64,000 bases of DNA from an uncultured Christensenellaceae bacterium (GCA_944381365.1 CALWKW010000002.1:257952-321951), one strand, 5' to 3'; counted from the first letter of the stretch, positions 10,435-25,872 are shown. Numbers and translations are program-made. The notes: generated by a model from the sequence alone, not told the origin.

Positions 10435-10704
10435 ATGAAATCAATCATTGAAGAACTGTATTACGGAAATATCTATGCAAAAGACATTGTATTACCCGAA
10501 AAGAAACGCAAAAAAGAACTTGCGCTTTACGACAAACTGAAAGCAACTTTGTCAAAAGAAAGCGACGAACTCTTTGAAAAATTTATCGAGCTTATAGATG
10601 ATCATTACGACGAACTGATGCTAATGATTTACAAACGCGGCGTTTCTACGGGAATTATGATTGCTGCCGAAGCATTTATCGAAGGAGAAAAACTATGCGA
10701 TTGA
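10435..10704 (+). CDS. Small hypothetical protein (module A only)
   Basis: 89 aa. RBS AAGGAGG upstream. No counterpart in module B. Confidence 0.5.
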   Translation: MKSIIEELYYGNIYAKDIVLPEKKRKKELALYDKLKATLSKESDELFEKFIELIDDHYDELMLMIYKRGVSTGIMIAAEAFIEGEKLCD

Positions 10705-11693
10705 ATCTTGAAACCAAAACAAAAGAACAGGAACTCGTAAAGGCATACCTTGAAGAGAACGCAAGCGAAACTCTTGTAGAGAAAATCAACAACGGCACGC
10801 CTTTTGAAAAGGACGGAAAGCAACTTATCAACCGCAAAACGCTGGACGGCTTTATGCGATACGCCTGCGACGAAGCGAGAAAGCTCGCGGCAAAAGGCGC
10901 AAACTCCGCTTGCGTGGAAGAAAAAGTCGTGTACGGCTGGGCGGTGCATTACTTCGAGGAGGAGTCCATAGAAGGCACGCTCTTTAACGAAGACGGTACA
11001 GAGTATAATCCTGCTCCGAAACCGACGCCTGCTCAGGTCAGGAAAGTAGAAGCGAAAAAGCCGGAACAGCGTCAACCTACGCTCTTTGATTTTATGGAAC
11101 CGGAATCACCCGAACCCGAAGTCAACGATGAAAACGGCGACGATGAGGACGAACAGCCTTCACAAGAAGAAATCGACGAAATCCTTGCCGAAATTGCCGA
11201 AGAAGAAAAATCCGATGCGGAACCGGAAAAGCTCGTTTCACCGATCTGGCAAAAATATCAAGAACTTCAAAAGGAACACTCCGACCGTATTCTCTTGTAT
11301 CGCTTGGGCGATTTTTATGAAGTTTTCGGGGATAATGCCGTAACTCTTTCCGATGAACTCGGCTTAACCCTTACAGGCAGAGATGTAGGACTTGAAAGCC
11401 GTATTCCGATGATAGGTTTTCCTTATCACGCAGCGAACAACTATCTCCCAAAAATAACTCAAAAACACAAAATAGCCGTCGCCGAAACGCCCGACGACGT
11501 AAAGCTGCTCCCTGAACCCGAAGACGACTTCGATGAGCTGACGGAAGAAGAAATGCGGGAGTTTGACGGCGATATAGAAGAACCGAAAGACCTTGACGAC
11601 GAACCCGATAACGGTTTCGACACTTCCGCTTTCGATAAAAACGCTCTCTGCAAACTCGATGAGATCTTCGGCGATAAACTTACTTTGAGGTGA
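10695..11693 (+). CDS. PcfK-like/AcrIIA9-family-like N-terminal domain, an acidic linker, and a MutS-domain-I-like insert (fusion protein)
   Basis: N-terminal ~115 aa match the module B paralog and, from memory, the PcfK-like family. Residues ~185-265, 'SPIWQKYQELQKEHSDRILLYRLGDFYEVFGDNAVTLSDELGLTLTGR...IPMIGFPYHAANNYLPKI', resemble the MutS N-terminal mismatch-binding domain. Long D/E-rich stretches are present. Confidence 0.55.
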   Translation: MRLNLETKTKEQELVKAYLEENASETLVEKINNGTPFEKDGKQLINRKTLDGFMRYACDEARKLAAKGANSACVEEKVVYGWAVHYFEEESIEGTLFNEDGTEYNPAPKPTPAQVRKVEAKKPEQRQPTLFDFMEPESPEPEVNDENGDDEDEQPSQEEIDEILAEIAEEEKSDAEPEKLVSPIWQKYQELQKEHSDRILLYRLGDFYEVFGDNAVTLSDELGLTLTGRDVGLESRIPMIGFPYHAANNYLPKITQKHKIAVAETPDDVKLLPEPEDDFDELTEEEMREFDGDIEEPKDLDDEPDNGFDTSAFDKNALCKLDEIFGDKLTLR

Positions 11694-11697
11694 AATT

Positions 11698-13017
11698 ATG
11701 AAAGTTACAGTCATCAAACCCATTCCAAAATACATATTGGAGAGAATCCGAAAGACGGACAACAAAAACTATCCGAACCCTGACGGTCACGTTCGCTGTT
11801 ATGCCTATCTTACCACTTGGAAAAACGAACTTGTGAAGGTGACCGTTGCCGTAAAGCACCGTTATAAAAAATGGTACTGCAAACAGGTTGCCGTACATGG
11901 ACTGAACTCGGATAAGTGCTTCGTAAAGGATATGGAATACTGCTACTGCGCAAGCATGGGCTTTCGTTTCGGCTGGTACGAAGAAGGCTTGCAAAAATAC
12001 AAAAACTGGTACGAACGCGGTTGGTGCTGGGCGGACGATAAATATTACGATCCATACGCTACGCTTATCAATCCCGACTTTATAGACCGCTTGCCGGAAT
12101 TCAAATTCAGCGCATATAAACTGTATCAGGGCTGCGATATTTTCAAGTATTTACGGCTTTATCGGCAGTATCCCCAGATTGAAATGCTGATGAAACTCGG
12201 CTTTTCGAGAATTGCCATGAGCACCACCATTCTTAAACGCTGCGGAACGGATAAAGCCTTCTGCAAATGGCTCATTTCCAACAAAGCGTTGCTTCAAAAC
12301 AGACACTACTATATCGACGTCATAATCCGTGCATATAGGACGAAAAAACCGCTTGAACAGTTGCAATCATATAAGGAAGAGAAGCTCAGACTAATCCATG
12401 ACAGCAGTCTTACTCCCATTAAAGAACTGTTCAAAGGAAAAGACCTTGAACGGCTCTTCGACTATATGCTAAAACAACAGACCAACCCGAACACTTATCT
12501 CGACTATCTGAAAGCCTGCCAACATCTCGGTCTGGATATGACAGAAGAAAAGGACCGTTTTCCCCACGATTTCAAACGCTGGCACGATATCCGAATCGAC
12601 GAATACGCCACGAAAAAGGCTATGGAAGACGAAGAAAAACGCAAGGAACTGTATATTCAATTTGCCGCCGTTGCGGAAAAATACCTGTCTTTGCAACACG
12701 CAAAACGAAGCTCATTTATCTGCATTATCGCCCACAGCCCGGCAGATCTGATTCGAGAAGGCGAAATGTTGCATCACTGCGTCGGCAGAATGGGTTACGA
12801 CCAAAAATTTGTCCGCGAAGAAACGCTCATTTTCTTTATCCGCAACAAGCAGGAACCCGATACGCCGTTCGTTACAGTCGAATACTCCTTGAAAAACCGG
12901 AAAATCCTGCAATGCTACGGAGAACACGACCACAAACCGAGCGAAGACGTACTGCATTACGTCAACAAAGTATGGCTGCCTTACGCCAACAGAACACTCA
13001 AACAAATTGCCGCATAG
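11698..13017 (+). CDS. PcfJ-like protein (paralog of 36319..37641)
   Basis: 439 aa. C-terminal 'EGEMLHHCVGRMGYDQKFVREETLIFFIR...PFVTVEYSL' block, as I recall for the PcfJ-like domain of conjugative plasmids and ICEs. Confidence 0.6.
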   Translation: MKVTVIKPIPKYILERIRKTDNKNYPNPDGHVRCYAYLTTWKNELVKVTVAVKHRYKKWYCKQVAVHGLNSDKCFVKDMEYCYCASMGFRFGWYEEGLQKYKNWYERGWCWADDKYYDPYATLINPDFIDRLPEFKFSAYKLYQGCDIFKYLRLYRQYPQIEMLMKLGFSRIAMSTTILKRCGTDKAFCKWLISNKALLQNRHYYIDVIIRAYRTKKPLEQLQSYKEEKLRLIHDSSLTPIKELFKGKDLERLFDYMLKQQTNPNTYLDYLKACQHLGLDMTEEKDRFPHDFKRWHDIRIDEYATKKAMEDEEKRKELYIQFAAVAEKYLSLQHAKRSSFICIIAHSPADLIREGEMLHHCVGRMGYDQKFVREETLIFFIRNKQEPDTPFVTVEYSLKNRKILQCYGEHDHKPSEDVLHYVNKVWLPYANRTLKQIAA

Positions 13018-13030
13018 GAGGAATTAAACA

Positions 13031-13315
13031 ATGGCAAACTATTTCAGAATTACAGCTTATCACCCGACCGAAAATCTCTCGGTCATTATGGATTCAAACG
13101 GACTGTTTGAAAAACTCTGGCAATTTTCATCCTTTATGGTATCCAAAGGCTTCAAAATCATAGAAGTCGGAGGCGAAGACAAATTCGATGATGGAGATAT
13201 GCCGAAAGCAGAATACGATAACGTCCACGTTATTTTGCGTGCATGCAAAAGCGGTGAAGCGGAAATTACAGGAAACCGCATTACGGTGGAAGGTAAATCA
13301 TACACTACACTATAA
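13031..13315 (+). CDS. Small conserved hypothetical protein (paralog of 37657..37941)
   Basis: 94 aa. 'YFRITAYHPTEN.SVIMDS.G.FEKLWQFSS..VSKGFKII.VGGEDKFD.GDMPK' is shared between both copies. Confidence 0.65.
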   Translation: MANYFRITAYHPTENLSVIMDSNGLFEKLWQFSSFMVSKGFKIIEVGGEDKFDDGDMPKAEYDNVHVILRACKSGEAEITGNRITVEGKSYTTL

Positions 13316-13317
13316 AA

Positions 13318-13346
13318 AGAAAAAGCCGCTTAATTGCGGTTTTTTC
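13318..13346. terminator. Terminator hairpin between convergent genes
   Basis: AAAAGCCGC-TTAATT-GCGGTTTTT. Confidence 0.7.
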
Positions 13347-13350
13347 GCTT

Positions 13351-14766
13351 TTAATCTCCTTTTATATCAAACAATTGTTTTAACCTTCTTGAATTACTAA
13401 GTACGACTTGCTTCAATTGAATTTGAGGCAAACCTGCTCTTTCAAAAATCATAAAATATATCATTTTTTGCAATATTAGAGTGTCCAACATTACTGTATG
13501 ATAATCAATATTATTCTTTAATAAATGCGCTATGTCATTACGAGCATCCGTTATTCTATTAGCTAAATTAGTCATATCATAGCCAGTATATTTGGTCCCA
13601 AAACTGCTGGAGATTTGTGCTTTTGTTTTATCTAAACATTTTAGCATTTTAGCAAATACAAATTTTAGACGTGACCTTAAAGAACTTAATATTTTATCGA
13701 CACGATCTTTTTCACTCTTAATTATAGCTTTTTCAAGTTCTGTTTCTCCATCTGAATAATGAATTACACGCTTATAAGCAACCTTATAATCTTGTTCTTT
13801 AACACAATAATCCTCAATTCCTGCTTTTAGATTTTCCCTATACTGATTTTCAAACATGCTTGCACACCGCAATATATCTAATGGTTCACAAGTATTTGAT
13901 TTAGAATAATACAATTCTTTCAAATCAAAATTATCTATCAAAAACATTTTCATTATATTAGAAAAAACAGATTTTATAGTATCAAAATTAAAAATACTTT
14001 CTGTTAAAATACTTTTGGTGTCTTGTATAAAAAAAATATTTTCTATCAAAAAATTATTATCATTCGCTAAGTTCACATAGTTAATAAAATTCCCAGCATC
14101 ACAAAGCAAAAATTCACAATATCTATTAACCGCATTTACAATTCTTACAACCAAATCATCACTTATACTTTTATTCGCTTCAAACACAAACCCGCCAACA
14201 ATTTCTTTAGGGAATTTTATTTCCATAGATTGTTGGTTATGATTAAAATGGATTGCTGTGGATTTATATACTTTAATATGTATTTCATCGATATCAAACT
14301 CAGCGCATACTTCATTATCAATAAATCCGTTAGTATTATAATCAAAGCTATTGGGGGCAAAAAAATGTTCTAATAAGCATGGAGAAAAAACCTCTACTTT
14401 GAATATTGGAGAATCATTTCTAATTTTGCTTATTATTGATTTGACATAAAAACAAATTTCATAGCCATTGGTATAGCCATATTCTAAAAACGCAGTAAAG
14501 CCTTGCGAAATATCAACTTCCGAATCAAAATGTCCATACTCATGATTTCTATATTCATCAAAGCAAATCCATTTCTTATTTAAAGCTCTTATAACAACTA
14601 CATTTATATCATATCGCGAAATAAATCTAAAACTTGCAACGCCATTGTGAAAATTGTAACTTAAACGATTTCCGTCAATAGTTATTTCGCCTCTCGCAAT
14701 AAAATTATTAATGCGCTGAGCATCATTAAGTAAAAACTCACGAGCTATTTTCATAAATTTCTCCAC
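13351..14766 (-). CDS. HEPN-domain protein, ApeA-like (candidate single-gene abortive-infection defence)
   Basis: 471 aa, low GC. C-terminal 'ITDARNDIAHLLKN' is an R-x4-H HEPN motif. A large uncharacterised N-terminal region gives an architecture like ApeA (N-terminal domain plus HEPN). Confidence 0.45.
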   Translation of the reverse strand: MEKFMKIAREFLLNDAQRINNFIARGEITIDGNRLSYNFHNGVASFRFISRYDINVVVIRALNKKWICFDEYRNHEYGHFDSEVDISQGFTAFLEYGYTNGYEICFYVKSIISKIRNDSPIFKVEVFSPCLLEHFFAPNSFDYNTNGFIDNEVCAEFDIDEIHIKVYKSTAIHFNHNQQSMEIKFPKEIVGGFVFEANKSISDDLVVRIVNAVNRYCEFLLCDAGNFINYVNLANDNNFLIENIFFIQDTKSILTESIFNFDTIKSVFSNIMKMFLIDNFDLKELYYSKSNTCEPLDILRCASMFENQYRENLKAGIEDYCVKEQDYKVAYKRVIHYSDGETELEKAIIKSEKDRVDKILSSLRSRLKFVFAKMLKCLDKTKAQISSSFGTKYTGYDMTNLANRITDARNDIAHLLKNNIDYHTVMLDTLILQKMIYFMIFERAGLPQIQLKQVVLSNSRRLKQLFDIKGD

Positions 14767-14811
14767 GACTATAATGTAAACATTAAGCTTCTATATATCC
14801 AATCTAACTTT

Positions 14812-15315
14812 CTATAACTTAGGAATTATAGTATGATTATCTATTGTTTTACGGGAAATATCCCATTTAGCGACTTTGATTTTTTTGATTCTTTTACCAT
14901 CGCCAAAATCTAACAAGTCTTCTCTATGTAAGATATTTAGTACTTTATTTAAACTCCCAAGTCCAGCCGACGAAAGCAGATAGGCATCTTCCGGATCGCA
15001 AAGTTTGCAGTAAATCTGTAACTGCCCTAAATTGGGTAAAGTAAGGGGTGTCTTTTTTGCTTCAATAAAGTAAAGATGTGCTTTATTGCTCCATATTACC
15101 ATACCTAAAACATCTATTTCTATCTTTAAACCTACTACTTGAGGATAATAATTTATTATACCGTATTTTTCAAGTACGGAATCTAAATAGACTGAATGAC
15201 AATCGACAACTTTAATGTCACAATTTTGGCGTTTATATTTGTCAACTAGATATATTTCAAGCCATTTGCACATATCGGCATAAAGCTCAACTTCTTTAGC
15301 TACATTATTCTCCAT
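14812..15315 (-). CDS. Small PD-(D/E)xK-like nuclease-fold protein (candidate restriction subunit)
   Basis: 167 aa. 'KIEIDVLGMV...LYFIEAKK' gives a D...ExK arrangement. 11-nt overlap with the upstream gene in the MTase operon. Confidence 0.45.
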   Translation of the reverse strand: MENNVAKEVELYADMCKWLEIYLVDKYKRQNCDIKVVDCHSVYLDSVLEKYGIINYYPQVVGLKIEIDVLGMVIWSNKAHLYFIEAKKTPLTLPNLGQLQIYCKLCDPEDAYLLSSAGLGSLNKVLNILHREDLLDFGDGKRIKKIKVAKWDISRKTIDNHTIIPKL

Positions 15316-16183
15316 ACCCTAAATCCCTTGCCAAATCTGTCCATGAGTCATAATGTTTACCTCTAATGACTGCCGGTAGTGATTCATCATTTTCCATAGG
15401 ATGAATCGGTTTATGTTCTCTCCTTCTTATTGTTTTTTCCCAATAAAATTTATGCGTTTTGTTTTCGTCCAAATATTCTAAAAGTTCTTCCGAGTATTTT
15501 TCCAACGCGCGTTGTTTGTGAAGAATATTAAATCCTATTGGCATAAACTCATTAGCACATATTTTTACTTGGTGTTCTTTTTTCCAATAATAGGGTTTTC
15601 CTTGATTATACATTTTCAAATTTGAATCTCTAAAATTTGGATGTCCGAAATCTATAGTCTGCACCGGAATATCTAAGCTTTTTAGCATATTAGAGATGTC
15701 TATAACCATTTGCCAATTGCCTGGAATTTCAATGTAAACTCTATGGAATCCTTCTTGCCCATATGCCATATTACTACGTCGAATATAACCTGTCACATCA
15801 GCAATTCCGCGTAACAGCTCTTTTTTTTCGTCATTTGATAACGAGAACAATTCGCTATTCATTGTCATTGTAGAATGATGAACACCGTTTCCAATAAATC
15901 GCATAATTTCTCGCATCGTATAATCGGCATTTGGCTTGGTAAAAGATATTTGCGTAACTCTTTTCCCTTGAACAATAGGTAATGAGTGCCCAATCAATGG
16001 TTCAACAACGCACCGTATATCTGCTAAACTGCTTTTTACATATACGGAAACTTCACGCCCTTCATCGTCCCTTAAATTTTTATGAGGCAACTCTATCGTA
16101 ATTGTAGTTGTATCTTCTTTACGTTGCACCTCGCCGTTTCCTAAAATCATTCCAATTAAATATGCCATTTGCGCATTCATCAT
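15305..16183 (-). CDS. Double-motif LAGLIDADG-like protein with both catalytic acidic positions substituted (candidate DNA-recognition subunit)
   Basis: 292 aa. 'AYLIGMILGNGEV' aligns to LAGLIDADG with N at position 8. 'LLRGIADVTGYI' is a second motif with T at position 8. ATGA overlap with the C5-MTase gene. Confidence 0.4.
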   Translation of the reverse strand: MMNAQMAYLIGMILGNGEVQRKEDTTTITIELPHKNLRDDEGREVSVYVKSSLADIRCVVEPLIGHSLPIVQGKRVTQISFTKPNADYTMREIMRFIGNGVHHSTMTMNSELFSLSNDEKKELLRGIADVTGYIRRSNMAYGQEGFHRVYIEIPGNWQMVIDISNMLKSLDIPVQTIDFGHPNFRDSNLKMYNQGKPYYWKKEHQVKICANEFMPIGFNILHKQRALEKYSEELLEYLDENKTHKFYWEKTIRRREHKPIHPMENDESLPAVIRGKHYDSWTDLARDLGYGE

Positions 16184-17274
16184 TGTTCTCCTTGCTCGTC
16201 AACTGTATCATTATATATTTTATCAGCTATCGCCTTTGCCATCAATGGTGGAACAGCATTTCCTATTTGAGTACGCACTGCGACTTTTGTACCGTAAAAA
16301 ATATAGGTATCATCAAAAGATTGAATGCGTGCTGCCTCACGAGGAGTAATAGCGCGGTTCAATACCGGATGATTATTGGTTCCGTTAGAGGCCGCATCAA
16401 ATCTGGTATCTATCGTCGGAGAAGCTTCGTCCCATTTTAGGCGTCCCCAAGTTGAATGAAATTTTTGTTTGCCGAGAAGCTCTTCGGGTAAAAACTCTTT
16501 TCCTTTCTCAGGGGGGATCATCTGTAATTTTTGTATCGCAATTTGAGCATGATTGGAAGCCTTATGATTATATAGTTTTGCGCTATTTCTCCTCATCATT
16601 TTTTGATAATCAGTCGATGCTGGCAACCTATAATCTTGCTCAAAAGCTCCTTCTCCCGATTCCAAATATGCCAAATCACTTATTGCTTCACGAACAGTAA
16701 CAGTTTTACTGCAAGTCGGTAATGGCAAACATATTTTTTTATTCTTACAGCAAATGAAGATTGTTCTTTCTCTTGTTTGAGGAACGCCAAAATCACTTGC
16801 TTTTAATACGCCGACATCAACATTGTAACCGAGTTTATTTATTGCAGATATAATCTCTTCTTTAAACCAACCTTTAGATGTAGAAAGCAGAGTTTTAACA
16901 TTTTCAATAACAAAAACTTCCGGCTGTAACCTTTCTACCAATTTCAAATACTCAATGAAAAGAAAATTACGAGGATCCTTAAGTCCAAGTTTTTTTCCTT
17001 TCATAGAGTAACCCTGACACGGTGGCCCGCCAATTATCATATTGACTTTATATTTAAGAGATTGCTCTATTACTTCATTCTTCACTTCTTGCGTTTTAAT
17101 ATCGCCAACAATAACATGGACATCCGGCATATTCTTCTTAAGAGTAATAGCTAGTTTATCATTTATGTCTAAAGCGACAACTGTTTTGAAGTGGGGATTC
17201 AAATGCATCCCATAAGACATTCCACCTGCGCCACAAAACAAATCAAGTATTCTATAATTGACATCTATGTTCAT
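16180..17274 (-). CDS. DNA (cytosine-5)-methyltransferase
   Basis: Motif I 'DLFCGAGGMS', motif IV 'GGPPCQGYS', motif VI 'FVIENV', motif VIII 'QTRERTIFI', motif X 'QIGNAVPP'. Confidence 0.92.
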   Translation of the reverse strand: MNIDVNYRILDLFCGAGGMSYGMHLNPHFKTVVALDINDKLAITLKKNMPDVHVIVGDIKTQEVKNEVIEQSLKYKVNMIIGGPPCQGYSMKGKKLGLKDPRNFLFIEYLKLVERLQPEVFVIENVKTLLSTSKGWFKEEIISAINKLGYNVDVGVLKASDFGVPQTRERTIFICCKNKKICLPLPTCSKTVTVREAISDLAYLESGEGAFEQDYRLPASTDYQKMMRRNSAKLYNHKASNHAQIAIQKLQMIPPEKGKEFLPEELLGKQKFHSTWGRLKWDEASPTIDTRFDAASNGTNNHPVLNRAITPREAARIQSFDDTYIFYGTKVAVRTQIGNAVPPLMAKAIADKIYNDTVDEQGEQ

Positions 17275-18299
17275 TTAATCTTCTTCCTGATAAGTATTCT
17301 TTTGAAAATATCTTTTCCTTTGATTCTTGGCTTAAATAAGTCGAACTCATTATCGGAGCCATGATTTGCCTCACCAATTATTTCAAACTGAGAATCATTA
17401 TGATACTTTAGATAAGTAAGAGGAACTCCCATTATTCCCGTATAATCTGATGGAATTTCCAAAACTCTAGAAACATTTATAGCGTCAAAATCATCATACT
17501 TAGGATATTTTTCCGGATCGTACTTACAGGTTAAGACTAATTGCTGATGCTTACGTTCATTATCTAAATTGGTAAGCCACATTGCATTTCCTAAGCTACG
17601 CCATTTCTGCCCGGTTTCGTCGACCCAAAATCTATATTTTCTAGGTTGTGTATCATTCGGGACTTTAAAAGCCATATCGCCAAAACGGTAACCAATCCAA
17701 GCTTGCCCACTTTTAATGAAAGGAAAAATCTCTTTATAAGTTATAGCATTTTGATTGCCAATTAACAAGTATTGTTTCTTATATTTTACCAACAATGAGA
17801 ACAAGTCTATGAATTTAGAAAAAGGTGGATTTGTGACTACTATATCAGCCTCCTTAAGATATTCAACACATTCCTCACTTCTAAAATCGCCGTCACCTTT
17901 TAATTTCTTAACAACCTTTAATTTATTTATTAGATCTGTTATACTGTCACCATGAAGTAAGACTTCCTCAATATTAGGAAATTGTTCTACAACCATTACA
18001 TAAGCAGCATTATCTACTAGCGGAGAATAATTGTCATCTACTATAGTCGACTGAGCAACAATTCTTGATCCCTTATAAGAGGTACAAATTAATTTTTTTA
18101 GTTTCAGTGTATTAAAATTTTTCAAAAAATAGGTTGTAAAAGCAGATTTGTAAGGATCATCACAATTACATAAAACAACCTTTCCTTGAAATTGTTCAGA
18201 ATAATGAGAAATCTCCGACTCTACAGTTGCATAGTCGGTGTACCATTCGTCTGTGTTTTCAGTATATCTAGCTTTATTAAGTATAGAATTGTTTGCCAC
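17271..18299 (-). CDS. N6-adenine DNA methyltransferase, EcoRI-methylase-like family
   Basis: 'DEWYTDYATVE...GKVVLCNCDDP...GDFRSEE...ADIVVTNPPFSKF...LLIGNQNAITYKE...YPKYDDFDAINV' matches my recollection of the EcoRI_methylase family. NPPF catalytic motif. Confidence 0.75.
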   Translation of the reverse strand: MANNSILNKARYTENTDEWYTDYATVESEISHYSEQFQGKVVLCNCDDPYKSAFTTYFLKNFNTLKLKKLICTSYKGSRIVAQSTIVDDNYSPLVDNAAYVMVVEQFPNIEEVLLHGDSITDLINKLKVVKKLKGDGDFRSEECVEYLKEADIVVTNPPFSKFIDLFSLLVKYKKQYLLIGNQNAITYKEIFPFIKSGQAWIGYRFGDMAFKVPNDTQPRKYRFWVDETGQKWRSLGNAMWLTNLDNERKHQQLVLTCKYDPEKYPKYDDFDAINVSRVLEIPSDYTGIMGVPLTYLKYHNDSQFEIIGEANHGSDNEFDLFKPRIKGKDIFKRILIRKKIK

Positions 18300-18328
18300 T
18301 CCAAATACCTCTAAAACATATTGTCAAA

Positions 18329-18520
18329 TTAGTCATCAAACTGAATACCATTTTGTGCACAAAATTCATAAAACTTACGTTGCAATGCATAAGTAGGCTT
18401 TCGGACACCAAGCTCCCAACGATTTAATGAAGAGTGAGCTACACCAATCGCATCAGCAAATTCTTTTTGACTCATATGTATAGTCTCGCGTGCGCACTTG
18501 ACTTTGTCTTTAAATTCCAT
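18329..18520 (-). CDS. XRE-family helix-turn-helix regulator (C-protein-like controller of the MTase operon)
   Basis: 63 aa. 'MSQKEFADAIGVAHSSLNRWELGVRKPT' is a classic HTH_3. First gene of the operon, behind a strong promoter. Confidence 0.8.
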   Translation of the reverse strand: MEFKDKVKCARETIHMSQKEFADAIGVAHSSLNRWELGVRKPTYALQRKFYEFCAQNGIQFDD

Positions 18521-18533
18521 AGTTTAACCTCAA

Positions 18534-18600
18534 TGCAAGGATATTGCAAACATTATAGCACTTTTTTCAAAAAAAATCAATACCTACAAGGATATATCGC
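18534..18600 (-). promoter_or_regulatory. SigmaA-type promoter with two flanking operator-like repeats for the XRE/MTase operon
   Basis: On the minus strand: TTGATT (18580-18575), 17-nt spacer, TGcTATAAT (-10 at 18557-18552). 'TGCAAGGATATTGCA' (18534-18548, 5-bp inverted arms) and 'ACAAGGATATATCGC' (18586-18600) share CAAGGATAT. Confidence 0.65.
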
Positions 18601-18667
18601 TTGACTATTATTATTTCGCACCAACAACATTTGCTCTCACTCTATTGATAGAATCTCAATTTGCAAC

Positions 18668-18835
18668 CGCGGCGTGTGCTTGTCTTGATACGAGAGCGGC
18701 GTCGCTCCGCTCCGCCGCGACAAGCACACGCCACGTAAACTTAACTCGACTGAAATACGGAAAAGCGGAGTGCTGACGGAAGCGGAGTCGCCCGCTGAAC
18801 CGCTTGGGCGATCTTCCGCTTTCACCGTCACACAT
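18668..18835. other. GC-rich hairpin plus iteron-like region (candidate rolling-circle origin or nick site for the adjacent HUH protein)
   Basis: 14-bp perfect inverted repeat GGCGTGTGCTTGTC (18671-18684) / GACAAGCACACGCC (18719-18732) with a 34-nt GC-rich loop. Direct repeats ACGGAA(AA)GCGGAGT at 18757-18771 and 18776-18788, plus an inverted partial copy CTTCCGCTT at 18813-18821. Lies directly 3' of the Rep gene. Confidence 0.45.
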
Positions 18836-18870
18836 TTTCCGTTTTTTGACCGTATTTTACCATTCGAAGT

Positions 18871-19920
18871 TCAGTTACATTTGCGCATTTGCTCGATGAC
18901 GGCTTTACTCACTTTGCCCATATAGCAGCCTTCGTCCCAGCACGAGAAATCGTCAAAAAGAAGCAGTTTCTTATCTTCAAGACCTATCGGACAGACGACA
19001 TCTTCGTCCATAATGTCCGAGATAAAGAATTGCGGCAATCCCTTAGAATAGACCATCTTTTCGCCTGTTTTCTCCATGTACTTTGTAAGATAAGCTATTG
19101 CTTCACCCAACATAGAACGATCGTCTACCGTTTTGAAATCGGATCTACCGAACCGTTTATTGAAATACGAGTTCTGTATTGTTGTCTGTACCTTCTTTTT
19201 GATAGGAGAATAGTCCTTGACTTCAACGAGTTCGCCCGGCATCGAGCCTTCGGGGATATAGAACAACCCGTGGAAATGCAGACGCTGTTTTTCGGGAGAG
19301 CGTTCCCATACGCCGACATACTTCCAATCTTTACGGTGGCACATCATTTTGAAACAGCCTTGAAGCTTCTTTTTGAAACTTTCTTCCGTGTGCTTTTCGC
19401 CGTCGTAGGTAAACGTGCAGAAATAGTTAAACTCCTGCAAATTAACCTTGCGGGTAAGCCTTACACGCCGACAAACAAGATTGCGTAATTTACGTTCAAA
19501 TTGCTCATTCACATACATTACCGTGCTTTTTTCGTCCTTAAAATACGGGTTCATGTTGTGAATGATAAATTTCTTCCTATCACTTCTGGTCTTTCCTGCA
19601 GTGGATTTATATAATTCCTCAAACAATTCCTTTCTTGTCATTGTCCTTACCTTCGGCTGTGATTCGGATTGCGGTTCAGACTCAGACTCTGACGATTCAA
19701 TATTTTTCTCAAGTGCAATAGGCGCATCGTCATTCTCCGACGGTGCGCTTTTAGTTGCCTTGCTATTTTCTTCTGTTTCGGTGGGCGGTTCGGCTTCTTT
19801 TTCCGTTACAACGATTTCTTCTTCCGGCGGTTTTTCCCGCCGCCTTGACGGCCTTGTCGTGTGCGGTATTCCTATGTAATGACTGCCGTCAAAGTAGATT
19901 TTACATTCGCCGTATGGCAT
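18871..19920 (-). CDS. HUH-superfamily rolling-circle replication initiator or relaxase-like protein
   Basis: Start at MPYGECKIY (ATG 19920 after GGAGG). Motif 1 'FCTFTYD', HUH motif 'LHFHGLFYI', Tyr motif 'AIAYLTKYMEK'. Acidic/Ser-rich linker near the N-terminus. Confidence 0.7.
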   Translation of the reverse strand: MPYGECKIYFDGSHYIGIPHTTRPSRRREKPPEEEIVVTEKEAEPPTETEENSKATKSAPSENDDAPIALEKNIESSESESEPQSESQPKVRTMTRKELFEELYKSTAGKTRSDRKKFIIHNMNPYFKDEKSTVMYVNEQFERKLRNLVCRRVRLTRKVNLQEFNYFCTFTYDGEKHTEESFKKKLQGCFKMMCHRKDWKYVGVWERSPEKQRLHFHGLFYIPEGSMPGELVEVKDYSPIKKKVQTTIQNSYFNKRFGRSDFKTVDDRSMLGEAIAYLTKYMEKTGEKMVYSKGLPQFFISDIMDEDVVCPIGLEDKKLLLFDDFSCWDEGCYMGKVSKAVIEQMRKCN

Positions 19921-19952
19921 AGATACCTCCTTTACAGGAGTACCGACCATCT

Positions 19953-22079
19953 TTACGCAGAACCCGTTTCGTCGGTATCCCTGTACAATGAATTGATAAA
20001 ATAACTGTTCTGCATTTTGAGCTCGTCAACGCTCGCTTTTTCGGTTACGTATTCGAGATAATCGCCGAGTCCGATATTTGTTTTCTTCGCCATATCGTTG
20101 AAATAATCGCTGAAACAGTCCGTCGAAAAACGGCGGCTGTAAATCTTCTTATTCATCAGATAATACTTCTTGTTTTCCGGCTTTCCGTCCATCGTGCCGC
20201 GCTCTTTTTCTATCTTCAAAACCGAATAGCCGAATCTGTTGAATATCCTTACGTTCCTGCGCCATATCCACGACGTTACGCATTTCAGCAAATGCACAAG
20301 CAACGTATTGTCGCCCCTGCGGAAACGGAAATCGTAGTACATGGCAATGAACCGGTTGAACGTCCATTCGCTTATCATTTCTTCTATCGTGTAGAACGGC
20401 AGCGCAAGTCTTTGCTCTCCCGATTGCACGATATGGATTATGTCGCACAGATCTCTTGCGTCGGCGCCCCAGCTTTCGGGCCGCTGTTCGTCCGTAAAGA
20501 CTTTGATGAACGGGAAATTATCCACCGTTGCCGAGTGACGGCACATTTTGAGCCACGCATTGAACAAGTCGTTTTTCTGATTTGTTTCTTCCGTTCCCTT
20601 CTTGACCTCTTTGAGCTCCAGATTATTGCCGCGCTCTTTGCCTATCTCCGAAATCGCCACAACGCCGAATTCAAAGCTGCCTGCCTTCGGGTTATTTTCT
20701 ATGACCTTTTTTCCGAGCCTTAACACATCGAAATCGAGGATATGCGCGTGCCTGCCTTCGGTAATCCCTTCGGGAAAAAAATCGGACGCCCAGATGGGAA
20801 AATTGCCTTCGCTTACAAGCTCGTTATCCTCTCGAATAGAATAGTTCGCCACGATAAGGCTGCTTTCGATAACATAGATGAAGTACGCCTGAGCGTATGT
20901 TTCCAACACTTCGAACAGAGTACTTACTTTCAGTCCGTCGTTAAAGGTCTGACCGTAACGGCAAATATCGTAGCCGTATAATTGCAGGTCCGTTCTGCCA
21001 TTCCTAAGGTAGCGATTTTCTTTCAGCTTTACCCATTCCTTGACCGTTGCAAGATTGTACACGGTGCCGTGTTCCATACAAAGCCTCAGTTCGTCCTCAA
21101 AAGCTATCCACGGGAACATAGGGAATTTCATATCGTTGTTTTTCAGAATGTCGTATGCCTTTTGTCGGAACATAACTTCCTGCGAGAGAGTCATATCCGT
21201 AATGAGCGTTGTCTTTTTCTTTCCCATACTTCCGCAAGAGATAGACACGATGGGTACTTCGTTGATAAACCCGCAATTACGGGCTTCGAAATGCCGCAGT
21301 CTGTTCAGGGCGATTGACTTTCTCCAACGGTTGAAGATGAGCCACGCTATCGTTGCAATACTCCACCACGGGAAGTGTCGGAAGATGACCTGCAAGTCGA
21401 TAAGTAGCTTGCACACCTGCGTATATATAGACGCGACGTCGAAGGACGCCGAAAAGTAAAAGTAATAGGCAAAGAATCCTAATACGATACTTACGAGATT
21501 GAGATGGAACGCCCACAGTACGAGCCAGCATATCCACAGCCAATTCGTGTGTTTCAGAAAATCGATATAGCCGAGTACGAACCGTTTTACAGGCTGATAT
21601 GTAGCACGAGATACCGATTTGAACACTTTAAGAGGCAGCGTATCTTTGTTGTGCTTCGTGTTTCCGCTTGCATAGAGCCGTTTCAACGCAAAGACAAATA
21701 CGAGCACGCAAGGGAGCGCAATCGCAATCACATTTGCCGCAACCGCCGATTTATCTCCGACCACCGACCAATAGCCGATGAAATTTTCCTTGTCTACAAA
21801 GAGTTCAAAAAACCGTGCCGCCGAAACCTTGAACGTATCAAAGTCCGAAGGGAGCAAGATATCCCACTTCATAACTTCCGACCAAGCATTTACGGCGGGA
21901 GCGGTATTGTGTGCGATGCCGAAGATCTCCGCGAAGTAAAACTTGATTGAATCTATCAGGTTGCCGCCTGCCTCGAACGCTCTGAGATAAGAAGACGAAA
22001 AGACGAAGAAGCCGAGAAGGACAAAGCCTACCGACACGATTGCCGAAAATATGATATTGACTGTTTTTCGTCTGTTCAT
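19953..22079 (-). CDS. Polytopic membrane protein with a C-terminal Zot/pI-like P-loop NTPase region
   Basis: 708 aa. The first ~260 aa contain several hydrophobic helices. These are followed by a deviant Walker A 'SCGSMGKKKTT', 'FGVVAISEIGKE', and 'WLKMCRHSATVDNFPFIKVFTDEQRPESWGADAR', which by eye parallels Ff pI 'LLVLDECG...FLHARKLGWDIIFLVQD...KQAR'. Confidence 0.45.
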   Translation of the reverse strand: MNRRKTVNIIFSAIVSVGFVLLGFFVFSSSYLRAFEAGGNLIDSIKFYFAEIFGIAHNTAPAVNAWSEVMKWDILLPSDFDTFKVSAARFFELFVDKENFIGYWSVVGDKSAVAANVIAIALPCVLVFVFALKRLYASGNTKHNKDTLPLKVFKSVSRATYQPVKRFVLGYIDFLKHTNWLWICWLVLWAFHLNLVSIVLGFFAYYFYFSASFDVASIYTQVCKLLIDLQVIFRHFPWWSIATIAWLIFNRWRKSIALNRLRHFEARNCGFINEVPIVSISCGSMGKKKTTLITDMTLSQEVMFRQKAYDILKNNDMKFPMFPWIAFEDELRLCMEHGTVYNLATVKEWVKLKENRYLRNGRTDLQLYGYDICRYGQTFNDGLKVSTLFEVLETYAQAYFIYVIESSLIVANYSIREDNELVSEGNFPIWASDFFPEGITEGRHAHILDFDVLRLGKKVIENNPKAGSFEFGVVAISEIGKERGNNLELKEVKKGTEETNQKNDLFNAWLKMCRHSATVDNFPFIKVFTDEQRPESWGADARDLCDIIHIVQSGEQRLALPFYTIEEMISEWTFNRFIAMYYDFRFRRGDNTLLVHLLKCVTSWIWRRNVRIFNRFGYSVLKIEKERGTMDGKPENKKYYLMNKKIYSRRFSTDCFSDYFNDMAKKTNIGLGDYLEYVTEKASVDELKMQNSYFINSLYRDTDETGSA

Positions 22080-22210
22080 AATACACCTCCTACCTGAGAG
22101 ATAATCGCTTGACCGTCGGTCAATCGGCTACCCGTATAGACGAGATAGCCGACGACCAAAACGGTCACGATTAAGAGGCATACGACAAGTATTCTCTTAA
22201 CCGTTTTCAT
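22076..22210 (-). CDS. Unannotated 44-aa single-TM protein, translationally coupled to the ATPase gene
   Basis: Hand translation: MKTVKRILVVCLLIVTVLVVGYLVYTGSRLTDGQAIISQVGGVL. Its TGA overlaps the ATG of 19953..22079 (ATGA). Below the ORF-track length cutoff. Confidence 0.55.
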   Translation of the reverse strand: MKTVKRILVVCLLIVTVLVVGYLVYTGSRLTDGQAIISQVGGVL

Positions 22211-22213
22211 TTG

Positions 22214-24229
22214 TTATTCCTCCTTTTTCTCACTTCGCTTTTTCTTTGCCTTGTCGATACTCTTGAACAGTGCGGCAATAGCCTTGAACGGCAACGAGAT
22301 AATCCAGAACAGTCCTTTAATGATCCACGGCAATACGGGGAACAGTAAGACTATCAAAAGGATAATCAGTAAGACCGCAAGCAGGATTTTCCACCACTCG
22401 GTATCGTCCGGCATCTGCACGGGCGGAGTAATCGAATTGACGATATCCATAGGACTTGAAACAACGGGTATGGCTTTGTACACACCGTCACGGTTAAAAG
22501 TGAGCTGAATAATGTCAAAATCCATAAACACGCTTTCCCATGCACGATACGCCTGTCCGCTCGTGTGTTTGTCGGGCAGAATGGTTCTCAGCTCCATAAT
22601 ATCGACCGCTGCGGAATAATAGTCGCTCGTCGCAAATCGGAACAGCACGACAACCTTTTCTTCATCGTCCTTGCCGCTTACCGTTACGGCGTCGTTGTAA
22701 TAGCTTTTCAGAGCGGGTACGTCCGCTGCGTTGATGAGCAGGCGTTCGGCAATTTCCTCGTCGCTTCCGTTCAGATCGCTTGCCTTGAGAGTATAAATGG
22801 GCGAAATCGTGCGGCTTTCTTCTTCCGGAATCTTACCGAATATCGTATCCCACAGCCCCCAGTTCAGCCAATTATCCCAGAACGATGGATTGCCTTCCTG
22901 CCAGCTCGTCAGCTTTTGCAAATCAACGTCCGCGTCAAAATCGTAATACGAATAGCCTTGCTGTATCTTGCCGAATTCCGTATCCATTTTGCGGTAATCG
23001 TCAATATCGTCGGCGAACAAGTCTGCGCTGATCGTTCCGTCTTTTATCGGCAACGTGCCTTTGTCGAAGGTCTTGTTGTAGTTCTTGATATACTCGTACA
23101 GGGCATTGCTTTCCACGCTGCCGATAGACACGATATCCGCATAGGGATCGTACTCCTCGATGTTGTTTACCTTGAACAGGTAATACAGCGTTTCGCAGGG
23201 GACGTGAAGATAATTCGTGCCGAGGTTCCAACCCCATTTTGCGACCATAACTCCGCCACCGCCGTCGCCTGCCTGTTGTCCGAGAGAAAGCACGGAATTG
23301 TAATAATCGTATCCGACGTGCTTGCCGACATAAGAGGACGCCTGATTGTAAAAATCCTGATTGCTCGTCACGACGATATCGTTGGTCTTGTACTCATACC
23401 ACTCAGCCTTGATGCGTTGCAGTCTGCCGTATGTATCGAAGAACCTCTGCGGAACGGCAAAATATACCGTGTCGAGCTGGTTCTGATAACCCGCGCCCTT
23501 AATGGAAGTCTTTGTACGGTAGAACGTGTGCTTGACGTCCAGCGTTATCGTTTCGAGGTATTCCACGGTACTTGTAAGCGTACTCTTAGCCGAAGCGTCG
23601 GGACCGTAGCCTTGCGAATAGCCCGTAAACCTAAATGTTCCGTTGACCGCATACTCGGTGGCGTTGTTGGCGCCGTATGTCATAAGCTCGATTCCGGAAA
23701 CGTCGTATCGGCGTTCGTTGCTGTTTACTCGGTCCGCAAAAGTCGTTCCGTTGATCTCTTTGTCAACCACCTTGAACTTGTAGAACAGGTTTTTATAGTT
23801 GCTGTCCTCGGACTTACTCAAAAACTGCAAGTCAAACTTCACATAGTCGTTTGGGTTGCCGTCTGCGTCATAAGAGGACGCCATTTGTATCTTATTGCTC
23901 TTGCTGCTCGTGGAGATGTTCAGACCTTTCGGATTGTAAACGTAGACGTACAACCCGTAGTTTCCACACATATTCGCTTTGTACGAATAGCAATACTCCA
24001 CGAAATTGATGATTTGTATATCTTTGCTTTCGTCGAAAGGATAGTCGTTGAGATCGAATGCCTCACCGCCGTCGGACGAAGATTTCAGATCGTCCAAAAC
24101 ATTGGTGGTATCGAAGTTCAACGCTTCCTCCGCATAAGCAATATTCGGCGCCGCCGTAGTGACGACGCCGAACAAAACCACGATGACAATAAGCAAAGAC
24201 AACGCTTTTACTTTAATTGCCGTGGTCAA
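22214..24229 (-). CDS. Large secreted protein with an N-terminal signal peptide and a C-terminal membrane anchor (function unknown)
   Basis: 671 aa. Signal 'LLIVIVVLFGVVTTAAPNIAYA/EE'. C-terminal hydrophobic 'WWKILLAVLLIILLIVLLFPVLPWIIKGLFWIISLPF' followed by a K/E-rich tail. 4-nt overlap with the upstream gene. Confidence 0.6.
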   Translation of the reverse strand: MTTAIKVKALSLLIVIVVLFGVVTTAAPNIAYAEEALNFDTTNVLDDLKSSSDGGEAFDLNDYPFDESKDIQIINFVEYCYSYKANMCGNYGLYVYVYNPKGLNISTSSKSNKIQMASSYDADGNPNDYVKFDLQFLSKSEDSNYKNLFYKFKVVDKEINGTTFADRVNSNERRYDVSGIELMTYGANNATEYAVNGTFRFTGYSQGYGPDASAKSTLTSTVEYLETITLDVKHTFYRTKTSIKGAGYQNQLDTVYFAVPQRFFDTYGRLQRIKAEWYEYKTNDIVVTSNQDFYNQASSYVGKHVGYDYYNSVLSLGQQAGDGGGGVMVAKWGWNLGTNYLHVPCETLYYLFKVNNIEEYDPYADIVSIGSVESNALYEYIKNYNKTFDKGTLPIKDGTISADLFADDIDDYRKMDTEFGKIQQGYSYYDFDADVDLQKLTSWQEGNPSFWDNWLNWGLWDTIFGKIPEEESRTISPIYTLKASDLNGSDEEIAERLLINAADVPALKSYYNDAVTVSGKDDEEKVVVLFRFATSDYYSAAVDIMELRTILPDKHTSGQAYRAWESVFMDFDIIQLTFNRDGVYKAIPVVSSPMDIVNSITPPVQMPDDTEWWKILLAVLLIILLIVLLFPVLPWIIKGLFWIISLPFKAIAALFKSIDKAKKKRSEKKEE

Positions 24230-24825
24230 AATACAATCACCTCCTGATCAAGTTCGACTCCTGCGACTTCTTCTATCACCGAGAAGTACAGCGTTACGCT
24301 GGATTCTCCGTTATAGGAAGTCACGATGAGCGAATACATATCGGTATAGCCTTTACCTTCGCATCCGCTGATCTCATTGTTGGGATAGACCGCCTGCAAC
24401 ACGTCGGTCACGGTACCTTTGGGGGTAAGCGTAAACGAGTTTTCTCCGTATTCGATATCGAAACCGGGCGTCAGATTTGTTTCCGCCTGAAACGAATAAA
24501 TTTGTCCGTCAAGCGAAAAATCAAAGTCCTTGCCGTCCACGACATGAGGTACAACCTTGACCGTATAGCCGCTGACGCCGCCTCCGGCTGAACCGAACGT
24601 ATATTTGACGTCAACATTTAACGGTTTTTCATTGGTTACCTCATAACCGCCTGCCGATGTAAGAACATCTTTACCGTCCACGGAGACGTAGAACGTCTTG
24701 AAACTGCTTGTAAAGCCACCCGTAAAACGAACGATTACGCCTATCACGCCCGCAAGAACCAAGACAACGAGAATATAGGCAATCACTTTTGCTACTGTTT
24801 TTCCTGTCTGTTTTGCGGAACTCAT
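24226..24825 (-). CDS. Membrane-anchored beta-rich protein (function unknown)
   Basis: 199 aa. N-terminal TM 'VIAYILVVLVLAGVIGVIV'. RBS GGAGGTG upstream. Confidence 0.55.
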   Translation of the reverse strand: MSSAKQTGKTVAKVIAYILVVLVLAGVIGVIVRFTGGFTSSFKTFYVSVDGKDVLTSAGGYEVTNEKPLNVDVKYTFGSAGGGVSGYTVKVVPHVVDGKDFDFSLDGQIYSFQAETNLTPGFDIEYGENSFTLTPKGTVTDVLQAVYPNNEISGCEGKGYTDMYSLIVTSYNGESSVTLYFSVIEEVAGVELDQEVIVF

Positions 24826-24840
24826 GGTTCACCTCCGTCA

Positions 24841-25857
24841 TCAGAATTTTAATGAACCCGATAAATTTACGCCGGTAACAACATTGTCATCAAAGCGCAA
24901 ATAAAATTTCTCGTACAAATTGGAGTTTTGTTCTATAACGGTTATTTCAAAATAAGCGTCTGAATCAACGGACTTTACCTTATCGTAATAATAAGTATTA
25001 CGCCCGCCGTCCAATCTCTGAGAATAACGATAATACCCTTCAATGGATTTCTTCGTTTCAACTACAAGACTGTTACCGGTCAAGTTCACGGATATAAGCT
25101 GATCTTTCAGTTCATTGACATTCGAAGTGTACTCATCGTGCCAGTCATCTCGAAGCGTCAAATTATTATGGTGCAACTCGCCCATAGTCAAATCGCCGTA
25201 TCCCACAACGAAAAATGAGTAATTGTTATACGATGAACCGACCTGATTAAAAGCGTTTTCGCATGCAACAGTAAACGTATAGGTAGTACCTACACCAAGC
25301 TTATACGAGGAACCAAGCGTATCATCGGACGTAGGAGAAATAGATCCGGAAAGCGAAATCGAACTCGGCAAGCCGACGAATTCAACAGAGCATTCGGCGC
25401 TATAGCCCCCTTCACGCGTAGTGCAGACAATCAAAATGACACCCGTAAAAGGTTTATGACAGGTTACCGTTGCTTCTGTGCTGCCGTCACCGGAAGGAGT
25501 TACGGTAATGTATTCCGACACGTCCGTTTCATTGCTTTCGTCGCCCCATTCGACAGACCAGTCAACAAGTTTGTTGGAGGCTGTTGCAGGAGTGACGGTA
25601 GCGGTAAGCGTTTTACTGACACTGCCGTTCTCCGAGTTCGCAACTGCCGCACTCATAGCGAGTTTTATGAACTCGGTATTCTGAATTTCGGCGGTAAAGT
25701 CATAAACCGGTGCTTGTTCCGCCGTTATTTCTCCGCTTGACGTTTCGGATGAATCTTTCGTTCCGCAAGCTACAAGTGTGACGGAAAGAATTGCTACAAG
25801 AACGACTGCGAGAATCGCAACCGCCCGTCTTTTCTTAGTTATAATGTTCGTATTCAT
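24841..25857 (-). CDS. Lipoprotein with a Big_2-like Ig domain (paralog of 25873..26943)
   Basis: 338 aa. Lipobox 'LVAC'. 'LTATVTPATASNKLVDWSVEW' is a Big_2-like signature. Shares 'VTVTP..DG...ATVTC..PF.G.IL' blocks with the neighbouring gene. Confidence 0.55.
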   Translation of the reverse strand: MNTNIITKKRRAVAILAVVLVAILSVTLVACGTKDSSETSSGEITAEQAPVYDFTAEIQNTEFIKLAMSAAVANSENGSVSKTLTATVTPATASNKLVDWSVEWGDESNETDVSEYITVTPSGDGSTEATVTCHKPFTGVILIVCTTREGGYSAECSVEFVGLPSSISLSGSISPTSDDTLGSSYKLGVGTTYTFTVACENAFNQVGSSYNNYSFFVVGYGDLTMGELHHNNLTLRDDWHDEYTSNVNELKDQLISVNLTGNSLVVETKKSIEGYYRYSQRLDGGRNTYYYDKVKSVDSDAYFEITVIEQNSNLYEKFYLRFDDNVVTGVNLSGSLKF

Positions 25858-25872
25858 GTTTTACCTCCTGTA

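Follow-up and report, generated by a model that had tools for sequence, protein, structure and literature searches.

A recurrent restriction-modification cassette with a predicted two-part nuclease: a degenerate LAGLIDADG-fold protein and a small PD-(D/E)xK partner

The HNH, GIY-YIG and PD-(D/E)xK folds are common to homing endonucleases and restriction enzymes; to our knowledge, the LAGLIDADG fold has so far been the exception. Our literature search gave no example of a restriction enzyme with a component of this fold (REBASE lay outside the search), and the word LAGLIDADG is absent from a comprehensive 2014 review of Type II systems. Here we describe a five-gene locus in a 64,000-nucleotide stretch of DNA from an uncultured Christensenellaceae bacterium (GCA_944381365.1, CALWKW010000002.1:257952-321951; the whole stretch is referred to as the window). 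It encodes a putative controller (C), an N6-adenine (m6A) methyltransferase (M6A), a C5-cytosine (m5C) methyltransferase (M5C), a 292-residue protein with a predicted LAGLIDADG fold (L292) and a 167-residue predicted PD-(D/E)xK nuclease (S167). We consider it very likely that the locus is a restriction-modification (R-M) system whose nuclease consists of two parts, L292 and S167. The initial annotation of the locus, made from the window alone, had stated that no characterised R-M system with a LAGLIDADG scaffold was known, and our search agrees with this.

The closest described enzymes in terms of organization are Type IIS endonucleases composed of a large and a small subunit, the class III heterodimers BtsI, BsrDI and BspD6I/BstNBI (PMC3017599, PMC1950550). 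In these enzymes, the large subunit serves recognition and a small subunit of ~18–25 kDa carries a PD-(D/E)xK site; two methyltransferases act on the asymmetric site, and related single-chain forms exist (PMC3017599, PMC1950550). The locus in the window is similar in these respects, with calculated sizes of ~34 + 19.5 kDa for L292 and S167 compared with 38 + 18 kDa for BtsI. Further, the small subunit of BspD6I is paralogous to the catalytic domain of its large subunit (PMC3017599), and some relatives of the L292–S167 pair carry a free paralogue as well. The differences are in gene order and fold. The BtsI genes are arranged M1-S-M2-L and both methylases are amino-methyltransferases, whereas the order in the window is M-M-L-S, with one m6A and one m5C enzyme. 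The large subunit of BtsI and BsrDI contains an N-terminal EcoRI-like D-X13-17-E-X12-QR site and a target recognition domain, and the DNA-binding domain of BspD6I is FokI-like; L292 has a predicted LAGLIDADG fold instead. We therefore rejected L292 as a large subunit of the BtsI/BsrDI/BsmI type, from which it is set apart by motif and fold only: the D-X13-17-E-X12-QR pattern is not conserved (the QR at residues 224–225 varies within the family), and the N-terminus of L292 is the LAGLIDADG helix.

With the LAGLIDADG homing endonucleases I-DmoI, I-AniI, I-Tsp061I, PI-SceI and PI-PfuI, L292 shares the predicted fold, and its motif is in the same register as that of I-CreI. It differs from them in lacking the catalytic acids, in having an additional 26-residue insert and a ~55-residue tail, and in always being the third gene of an M-M-L-S cassette rather than being intron-encoded, intein-encoded or free-standing. 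WhiA/DUF199 is likewise a two-domain LAGLIDADG protein of the bacterial host that has lost the catalytic acids (PMC3384342). WhiA, however, is a transcription factor with a helix-turn-helix (HTH) domain at its C-terminus, whereas L292 has no HTH and is coupled to methylases and to a nuclease, with which it is fused in some relatives; the WhiA Pfam family was found neither in L292 nor among the families listed for 56 of its relatives. Finally, catalytically dead I-SceI has been fused to FokI or PvuII nuclease modules, yielding Type IIS-like enzymes (PMC2685105, PMC3258161). The same design principle, an inactivated LAGLIDADG domain that would bind DNA for a PD-(D/E)xK cleavage module, appears to underlie natural ~540-aa relatives of the L292–S167 pair. 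The engineered enzymes are artificial and have an 18 bp target, whereas the natural system, which appears to be their counterpart, must read a short, methylase-sized site shared with its methylases, and its modules are separate polypeptides in the window.

The genes of the locus, and the elements within them that are discussed below, are as follows.

18552..18580, minus strand: promoter-like site upstream of the C gene, TTGATT-17-TATAAT with an extended -10 TG (candidate, by consensus match only)
18329..18520, minus strand: C gene, putative 63-aa HTH controller (XRE/C-protein-like; HTH_3 match)
17271..18299, minus strand: M6A, EcoRI-like (gamma-class) N6-adenine methyltransferase, 342 aa, GTG start (PF13651)
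16180..17274, minus strand: M5C, C5-cytosine DNA methyltransferase, 364 aa (PF00145, TIGR00675)
15305..16183, minus strand: L292, large putative restriction subunit, 292 aa (fold by AlphaFold2 and Foldseek)
16133..16162, minus strand: LAGLIDADG-like motif 1, YLIGMILGNG, L292 residues 8–17
15788..15808, minus strand: LAGLIDADG-like motif 2, GIADVTG, L292 residues 126–132
15563..15643, minus strand: cluster H181-P-N183 ... E203-H-Q-x-K207 in the β3–β4 insert of L292 domain 2
14812..15315, minus strand: S167, predicted small PD-(D/E)xK nuclease subunit, 167 aa (AlphaFold2 model, catalytic motif)
15055..15114, minus strand: S167 predicted catalytic motif D68 ... E85-A-K87 (by sequence conservation)

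The initial annotation described five translationally coupled genes at 14812–18520. The five open reading frames (ORFs) and their coordinates stand, but coupling through overlaps extends to four of the genes. Read directly from the sequence, ATGA overlaps link M6A to M5C (17271/17274) and M5C to L292 (16180/16183), and L292 and S167 overlap by 11 nt (15305/15315); the C gene is separate, as it ends at 18329, 29 nt ahead of the GTG start of M6A at 18299. In a promoter scan, the TTGATT-17-TATAAT site obtained the top score, with 10/12 consensus matches, and a scan for terminator-like sites found none on the minus strand inside the operon.

The assignments of the first three products as an XRE/C-protein, an EcoRI-methylase-like m6A enzyme and a C5-methyltransferase are borne out by family searches. 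The 63-aa protein matches HTH_3 in Pfam (7e-9) and, weakly, the PADLOC Control_protein model (7.7e-4). M6A matches EcoRI_methylase PF13651 (2e-111) and PADLOC MTase_II (8e-107), and M5C matches DNA_methylase PF00145 (1.5e-70) and TIGR00675 (1e-59). The methylase catalytic motifs are intact in the translations: NPPF in M6A, and GPPCQ, ENV and QxRxR in M5C. In contrast to these proteins, neither L292 nor S167 matched any family in Pfam, NCBIfam or PADLOC. No sequence relatives of either protein were found in the PDB; the sequence and profile matches obtained there were chance GFP-like matches or a sub-threshold artefact involving designer pentatricopeptide (PPR) repeats, and were discarded.

For L292, an AlphaFold2 (AF2) model was obtained from a 138-sequence alignment, with a predicted local distance difference test score (pLDDT) of 85.6 and a predicted template modelling score (pTM) of 0.87. 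The model comprises two units, each starting with its LAGLIDADG-like helix: helix 4–16 followed by strands 17–21, 25–33, 70–72 and 76–84 in unit 1, and helix 117–131 followed by strands 132–137, 146–152, 176–178 and 205–209 in unit 2. When compared with the PDB using Foldseek, the model gave 69 matches at E ≤ 1e-3, the top 50 of which are all LAGLIDADG proteins. The matches include I-AniI (the best, 1.9e-7), the bI3 maturase, I-Tsp061I (template modelling score, TM, 0.65 on target), I-DmoI, PI-PfuI, PI-SceI and WhiA (chains at E 2.4e-5). The initial annotation had proposed a LAGLIDADG-like protein from two motifs; predicted secondary structure and fold matches now agree with that proposal. At the sequence level, LAGLIDADG family models scarcely register: LAGLIDADG_3 was detected in 2/56 family members at E 0.12, and no such model in Pfam matched L292 itself. 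An hhalign comparison placed residues 5–20 of L292 on residues 9–24 of I-CreI, with N16 opposite the catalytic D20 and the register as expected; as it aligned the motif alone, over 16 columns and with an insignificant score (probability 1%), we did not accept it as a sequence-profile link.

L292-like proteins occur in three architectures: standalone proteins of ~300 aa, proteins of ~540–557 aa, and proteins of ~1,000–1,300 aa with a C-terminal L-like region. For the analysis of conservation, we used 56 representatives that cover all three and are 24–53% identical. Among them, Y8, G11 and G17 of motif 1 (YLIGMILGNG, residues 8–17) and G126, D129 and G132 of motif 2 (GIADVTG, residues 126–132) are conserved or nearly so, and D129, at motif position 6, is near-universal. 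Since these residues are kept at such identities, the two motifs are not chance occurrences. Position 8 of the motifs, where the initial annotation had noted N and T in place of acidic residues, corresponds to N16 and T131. It is occupied by R, K or N in motif 1 and by A, T, G or S in motif 2; neither motif has D or E at this position in any of the representatives (0/56), so the degeneracy is a property of the family and the canonical LAGLIDADG site has been lost family-wide. WhiA has been described as lacking these canonical catalytic acids as well (PMC3384342). The structural model and the conservation pattern thus confirm L292 as a predicted two-domain LAGLIDADG-fold protein without the canonical catalytic acids.

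The AF2 model of S167 (pLDDT 92.3) contains an α-β-β-β-α-β core: helix 2–26, strands 33–38, 69–74 and 79–87, helix 93–106 and strand 110–115. D68 is located just before strand 69–74, and E85 and K87 are within strand 79–87. These three residues, which form the D68...E85-A-K87 motif, and E8 are invariant in 144 split and fused sequences. Foldseek matches in the PDB are weak (best E 0.07), and the list is dominated by PD-(D/E)xK restriction enzymes; in BFVD, the model matched Cas4/RecB (E 4e-3, probability 0.99) and an Mrr-like protein (probability 0.97). The named matches in both libraries are almost all PD-(D/E)xK proteins: MspJI, BamHI, XisH, EcoT38I, Cap4, FokI, VRR-NUC and UL24. Among the scanned members, weak Pfam matches to HSDR_N and YhcG_C were found, and one S167 relative in UniRef is named 'Type I restriction enzyme R protein N-terminal domain-containing', a designation that refers to a PD-(D/E)xK domain. 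The initial description of S167 as a mini PD-(D/E)xK protein carrying D...ExK is therefore upheld in both motif and predicted core, and these data support S167 as a predicted PD-(D/E)xK nuclease with an intact catalytic site.

The cassette recurs widely. A collection of 5.8 billion proteins yielded 1,922 matches to L292 and 646 to S167, few of them named, and those as 'hypothetical'. In a scan of one genome per species, we found 173 relatives of L292; the locus counts given here refer to the best 80 of the 173, which are 64–85% identical to L292. Carriers among these 80 include the Bacillota Streptococcus suis, Ruminococcus torques ATCC 27756 and R. albus 8, together with members of Bacteroidota, Synergistota, Fusobacteriota, Alphaproteobacteria, Desulfobulbaceae, Treponema, Saccharibacteria and Mollicutes. 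Haloimpatiens lingqiaonensis is a further cultured carrier. By tblastn, M6A was detected in 74/80 loci, M5C in 78/80, L292 in 80/80 and S167 in 77/80, and the order M6A-M5C-L292-S167 is kept in ~75 of the 80 genomes and in essentially all loci long enough to show it, so the R-M operon recognized initially in a single genome is a recurrent unit. A homologue of the controller was detectable by tblastn in only 6/80 loci, which suggests that the controller is exchangeable. Identity to the window proteins across the 80 loci is 64–85% for L292, 65–84% for M5C, 53–79% for S167 and 51–74% for M6A; L292 is thus at least as conserved as M5C and more so than M6A and S167. The cassette was also found in R. 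bromii, where it includes an extra 111-aa gene, in a metagenome-assembled genome of Campylobacterota, in two phages, and on the 6.5-kb plasmid p9 of L. plantarum P9 (NZ_CP060181.1).

Natural fusions link the two putative nuclease subunits. Proteins of ~540 aa (~532–575 aa) combine an L-like N-terminal half, which has a CxxC...CxxC zinc-ribbon insert, with an S-like C-terminal half that S167 matches at E ~1e-15 (phmmer). A profile search detected at least 212 such proteins; the catalytic D, E and K of their S-like half are invariant, and the order of the domains, L followed by S, is that of the genes in the window. Given these fusions, the overlap of the genes and the position of S directly after L in nearly all 80 loci, L and S would be parts of one enzyme, in line with the earlier suggestion that the LAGLIDADG-like protein acts with a separate small nuclease subunit. 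The fusions and the overlapping genes also lend indirect support to a requirement for both subunits in cleavage.

The methylases that accompany L and S vary. D12 and N6_N4 methylases are found beside them in some genomes (A. baumannii prophage, Campbellbacteria, locus L096), and N6_N4 and gamma-class N6_Mtase methylases in others (Nanoarchaeota, locus L095). A standalone L protein with 35% identity to L292 has its own S (E 2e-29, D...ECK intact); its neighbours are an HTH gene and a methylase in which D12 and N6_N4 are fused. On plasmid p9, M6A and M5C form a single 700-aa chain, and in locus L091 the two methylase activities are likewise joined in one chain. In close, distant and fused contexts alike, two methylase activities are always present beside L and S, whatever the methylase family. 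In genomes, then, L is obligately paired with S, and the two together with a double methylase activity. Because the two activities are always there and belong to different classes, the target is probably asymmetric. Modification of opposite strands by m6A and m5C has been documented for the Type IIS systems Alw26I, Eco31I and Esp3I (PMC334273, as cited in PMC3526304), and by this precedent each methylase would protect one strand of the target.

We propose that these genes make up a complete Type II R-M cassette, moved by horizontal transfer and directed at an asymmetric target site. M6A and M5C would each protect one strand, by m6A and m5C, respectively, and the C protein would time expression. 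L292 would be the subunit that recognizes the site and positions the enzyme on it, and S167 would be a minimal nuclease, responsible for cutting the DNA while docked on L292, with its domains probably acting in twos. Such an architecture would correspond to the recognition module and non-specific cleavage module of Type IIS/IIT enzymes, built here on a homing-endonuclease scaffold. The fused systems encode, in addition, a second, free S paralogue (S'), and the nuclease domains seem to work in pairs, as S + S' in those systems and plausibly as S + S in that of the window; with a non-catalytic L292, an S167 homodimer would be enough for double-strand cleavage. A comparison of sequence entropy between close and distant clades, aimed at DNA reading by the β-sheet, did not set the strands apart; it showed that domain 1 of L292 is far more variable between clades and that domain 2 is conserved. 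The zinc ribbon of the fused forms is also an insert in domain 1, and both features would suit a role of this domain in specificity. We infer the DNA reading and the catalytic silence of L292, the stoichiometry and the cut position, and we hold the full proposal, including a non-catalytic, DNA-reading L292, to be somewhat more probable than its alternatives combined.

The family also has invariant residues of its own, which bear on the role of L292 in this proposal. H181-P-N183, E203-H-Q-x-K/R207, K223, H261, E264, R274 and H277 are near-universal in the 56 representatives, and whether the protein is standalone, fused or giant, this polar cluster varies little or not at all. It is concentrated in the 26-residue β3–β4 insert of domain 2 and in the C-terminal tail (~55 residues, pLDDT 90–94). 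Its role may be that of an additional active site, a structural metal site or a surface on which S docks. On inspection, we rejected its assignment to the HNH/ββα-Me, phospholipase D (PLD) HxK, PD-(D/E)xK and GIY-YIG motifs; D178, considered as a 'PD' aspartate, is not kept beyond the close clade, and the same applies to D186.

In the giant proteins of ~1,000–1,300 aa (P0304, P0314, P0320, P0348, P0370; locus L092, 4928–8176), the L292-like domain is at the extreme C-terminus. D178 is replaced by I in these forms, and HPN, EHQxK and the histidines are kept; no Pfam domain and no S-like domain were detected in them. In L092, the sole giant-form context examined, an N6_N4 methylase gene lies immediately downstream.

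Several observations weigh against a silent, DNA-reading L292. The polar cluster spans clades with different methylases, and thus probably different specificities; it therefore does not determine specificity and may instead form another catalytic site. The free S' of fused systems lacks the ExK residues, which leaves one obvious active site per L-S/S' unit and fits a catalytic L. Moreover, WhiA shows that DNA binding is not a given for degenerate LAGLIDADG domains (PMC3384342).

The main alternative is a heterodimer with two active sites, of the BtsI/BsrDI/BspD6I type, in which L292 would recognize the target and nick one strand through its HPN/EHQxK/His-Glu cluster and S167 would cut the other. 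Class III Type IIS enzymes operate in this way (PMC3017599, PMC1950550). The cluster is invariant in all three forms of L despite their different methylase partners and lies within the insert of domain 2, the loss of ExK from S' calls for a second site elsewhere, and the identity of L292 across loci (64–85%, against 51–74% for M6A) is at least that of the methylases. On the other hand, the cluster fits no recognized nuclease motif, the nearby acids D178 and D186 are not kept outside the close clade, and four conserved histidines and a glutamate would equally suit a structural metal site by which the insert and the C-terminal tail are tied together. FokI-type dimerization of S would, in addition, suffice for double-strand cleavage. 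We regard the two-site heterodimer as a serious possibility, although an unlikely one. Less likely still, in our estimate, is a LAGLIDADG scaffold with a new catalytic or metal centre on the domain-2 insert (H181-P-N183, E203-H-Q-x-K207, K223, H261, E264 and H277); if it exists, L292 would represent a new structural class of restriction-enzyme subunit with an undescribed nuclease active site, nicking one strand while S167 nicks the other.

Small PD-(D/E)xK restriction enzymes of ~160 aa are known, and S167 might act by itself as a homodimeric Type IIP enzyme of PvuII size, with L292 as an accessory such as a WhiA-like regulator or stabilizer. WhiA is an example of a degenerate LAGLIDADG domain engaged in regulation (PMC3384342) and is among the fold matches of L292. 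This explanation is highly doubtful: L and S are joined in one polypeptide in at least 212 proteins; the constant presence of two methylase activities implies an asymmetric site, to which a symmetric homodimer is unsuited; L292 has neither a WhiA-type HTH nor a Pfam WhiA match; and the operon already includes a separate HTH controller. We give almost no credence to L292 and S167 as a methylation-dependent or other non-R-M effector, an alternative raised in the initial annotation, or to L292 as a selfish homing endonuclease gene that invaded an R-M operon, even though LAGLIDADG genes are typically mobile and the locus lies in a low-GC island beside a HEPN gene, since M-M-L-S synteny is fixed across many phyla at 64–85% identity, the family-wide absence of the canonical catalytic residues precludes homing through the canonical LAGLIDADG site, neither an intron nor an intein surrounds the gene, the HEPN gene is present in 0/80 loci, and two methylase activities invariably accompany the pair, which would be suicidal for a cell whose nuclease depended on the methylation they produce.

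The L292 family would close the LAGLIDADG gap between homing endonucleases and restriction enzymes. It is large and unannotated, as its close clade by itself comprises ~1,900 sequence clusters and no Pfam model covers it, and extends over many bacterial phyla, Nanoarchaeota, phages and plasmids. Thousands of 'hypothetical' genes beside orphan-looking methylase pairs could accordingly be annotated as restriction subunits. The family is also a possible source of new Type IIS or nicking enzymes and offers a new angle on the reprogramming of LAGLIDADG scaffolds.

One member of the fused branch may have been characterized already. R.MhoVII of Mycoplasma hominis, a 524-aa protein with no recognizable domain or catalytic motif, cuts only unmethylated GATG/CATC, and its partner is a fused N6_N4(YhdJ)+D12 methylase (PMC12898733, 2026). 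Compared by size and by the description of its partner only, R.MhoVII may belong with the fused L-S proteins: its length is near theirs (~532–575 aa), and the methylase families are those that accompany both the fused L-S proteins and the distant pair of split genes. No small S'-like ORF was reported for MhoVII, which is a difference from the fused systems. Even if R.MhoVII is a member, its fold and catalytic site were missed by its authors, and the split m6A/m5C clade would still be uncharacterized.

An optional ORF of 111–126 aa, which the window does not contain, separates the L gene from the preceding methylase gene(s) in some cassettes, at 4790–5125 in the R. bromii locus (L001) and at 2414–2794 in L091, and a gap of matching size is seen in ~6/80 loci. 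The copies in L001 and L091, which belong to distant clades with different methylases, share KWG[IL]ELR[IL]Y ... G[FY]R[IL]G.N and have no Pfam match. Plasmid p9, from a cultured strain, is compact: apart from rep, a DUF536 gene and a YafQ-type toxin pair, it carries only L, S and the fused EcoRI-like+C5 methylase.

In the window, the guanine-cytosine (GC) content of the cassette is ~30–39%, compared with 43–47% in the flanks, and its surroundings look like a mobile element. A PcfK-like protein fused to MutS domain I (PcfK/MutS_I) is encoded at 10695–11693, a PcfJ-like protein at 11698–13017 and a Rep protein of the ORF2/G2P type at 18871–19950; five large ORFs at 19953–26943 have no Pfam match. 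At 13351–14766 on the minus strand, 46 nt downstream of S167, a 471-aa gene product weakly matches the Apea-like HEPN family PF18739 (1.9e-5, just above the curated cut-off). This gene shares the low-GC island with the cassette and possibly its transcript, as no terminator lies between it and S167. It was considered as a sixth component and rejected on its absence from all 80 related loci, and probably represents a defence or toxin gene of its own that is stacked beside the R-M system. The single terminator-like hairpin in 13200–18900, an 11-bp stem followed by a T-run at 13319–13346, is placed between the HEPN gene and a convergent plus-strand ORF of 94 aa (13031–13315). A 254-aa ORF at 7080–7844 on the minus strand is possibly a second HEPN gene, with a sub-threshold match to the Cthe_2314-like HEPN family (2.5e-4; 21.5 bits, where the cut-off is 27.1). 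An Rfam scan of 13000–19200 gave no match. Within that interval, a GC-rich stretch between the Rep gene and the R-M promoter contains a 17-nt inverted repeat (18668–18735, 94% complementary, 34-nt spacer), which may serve the mobile element as a replication origin or a terminator.

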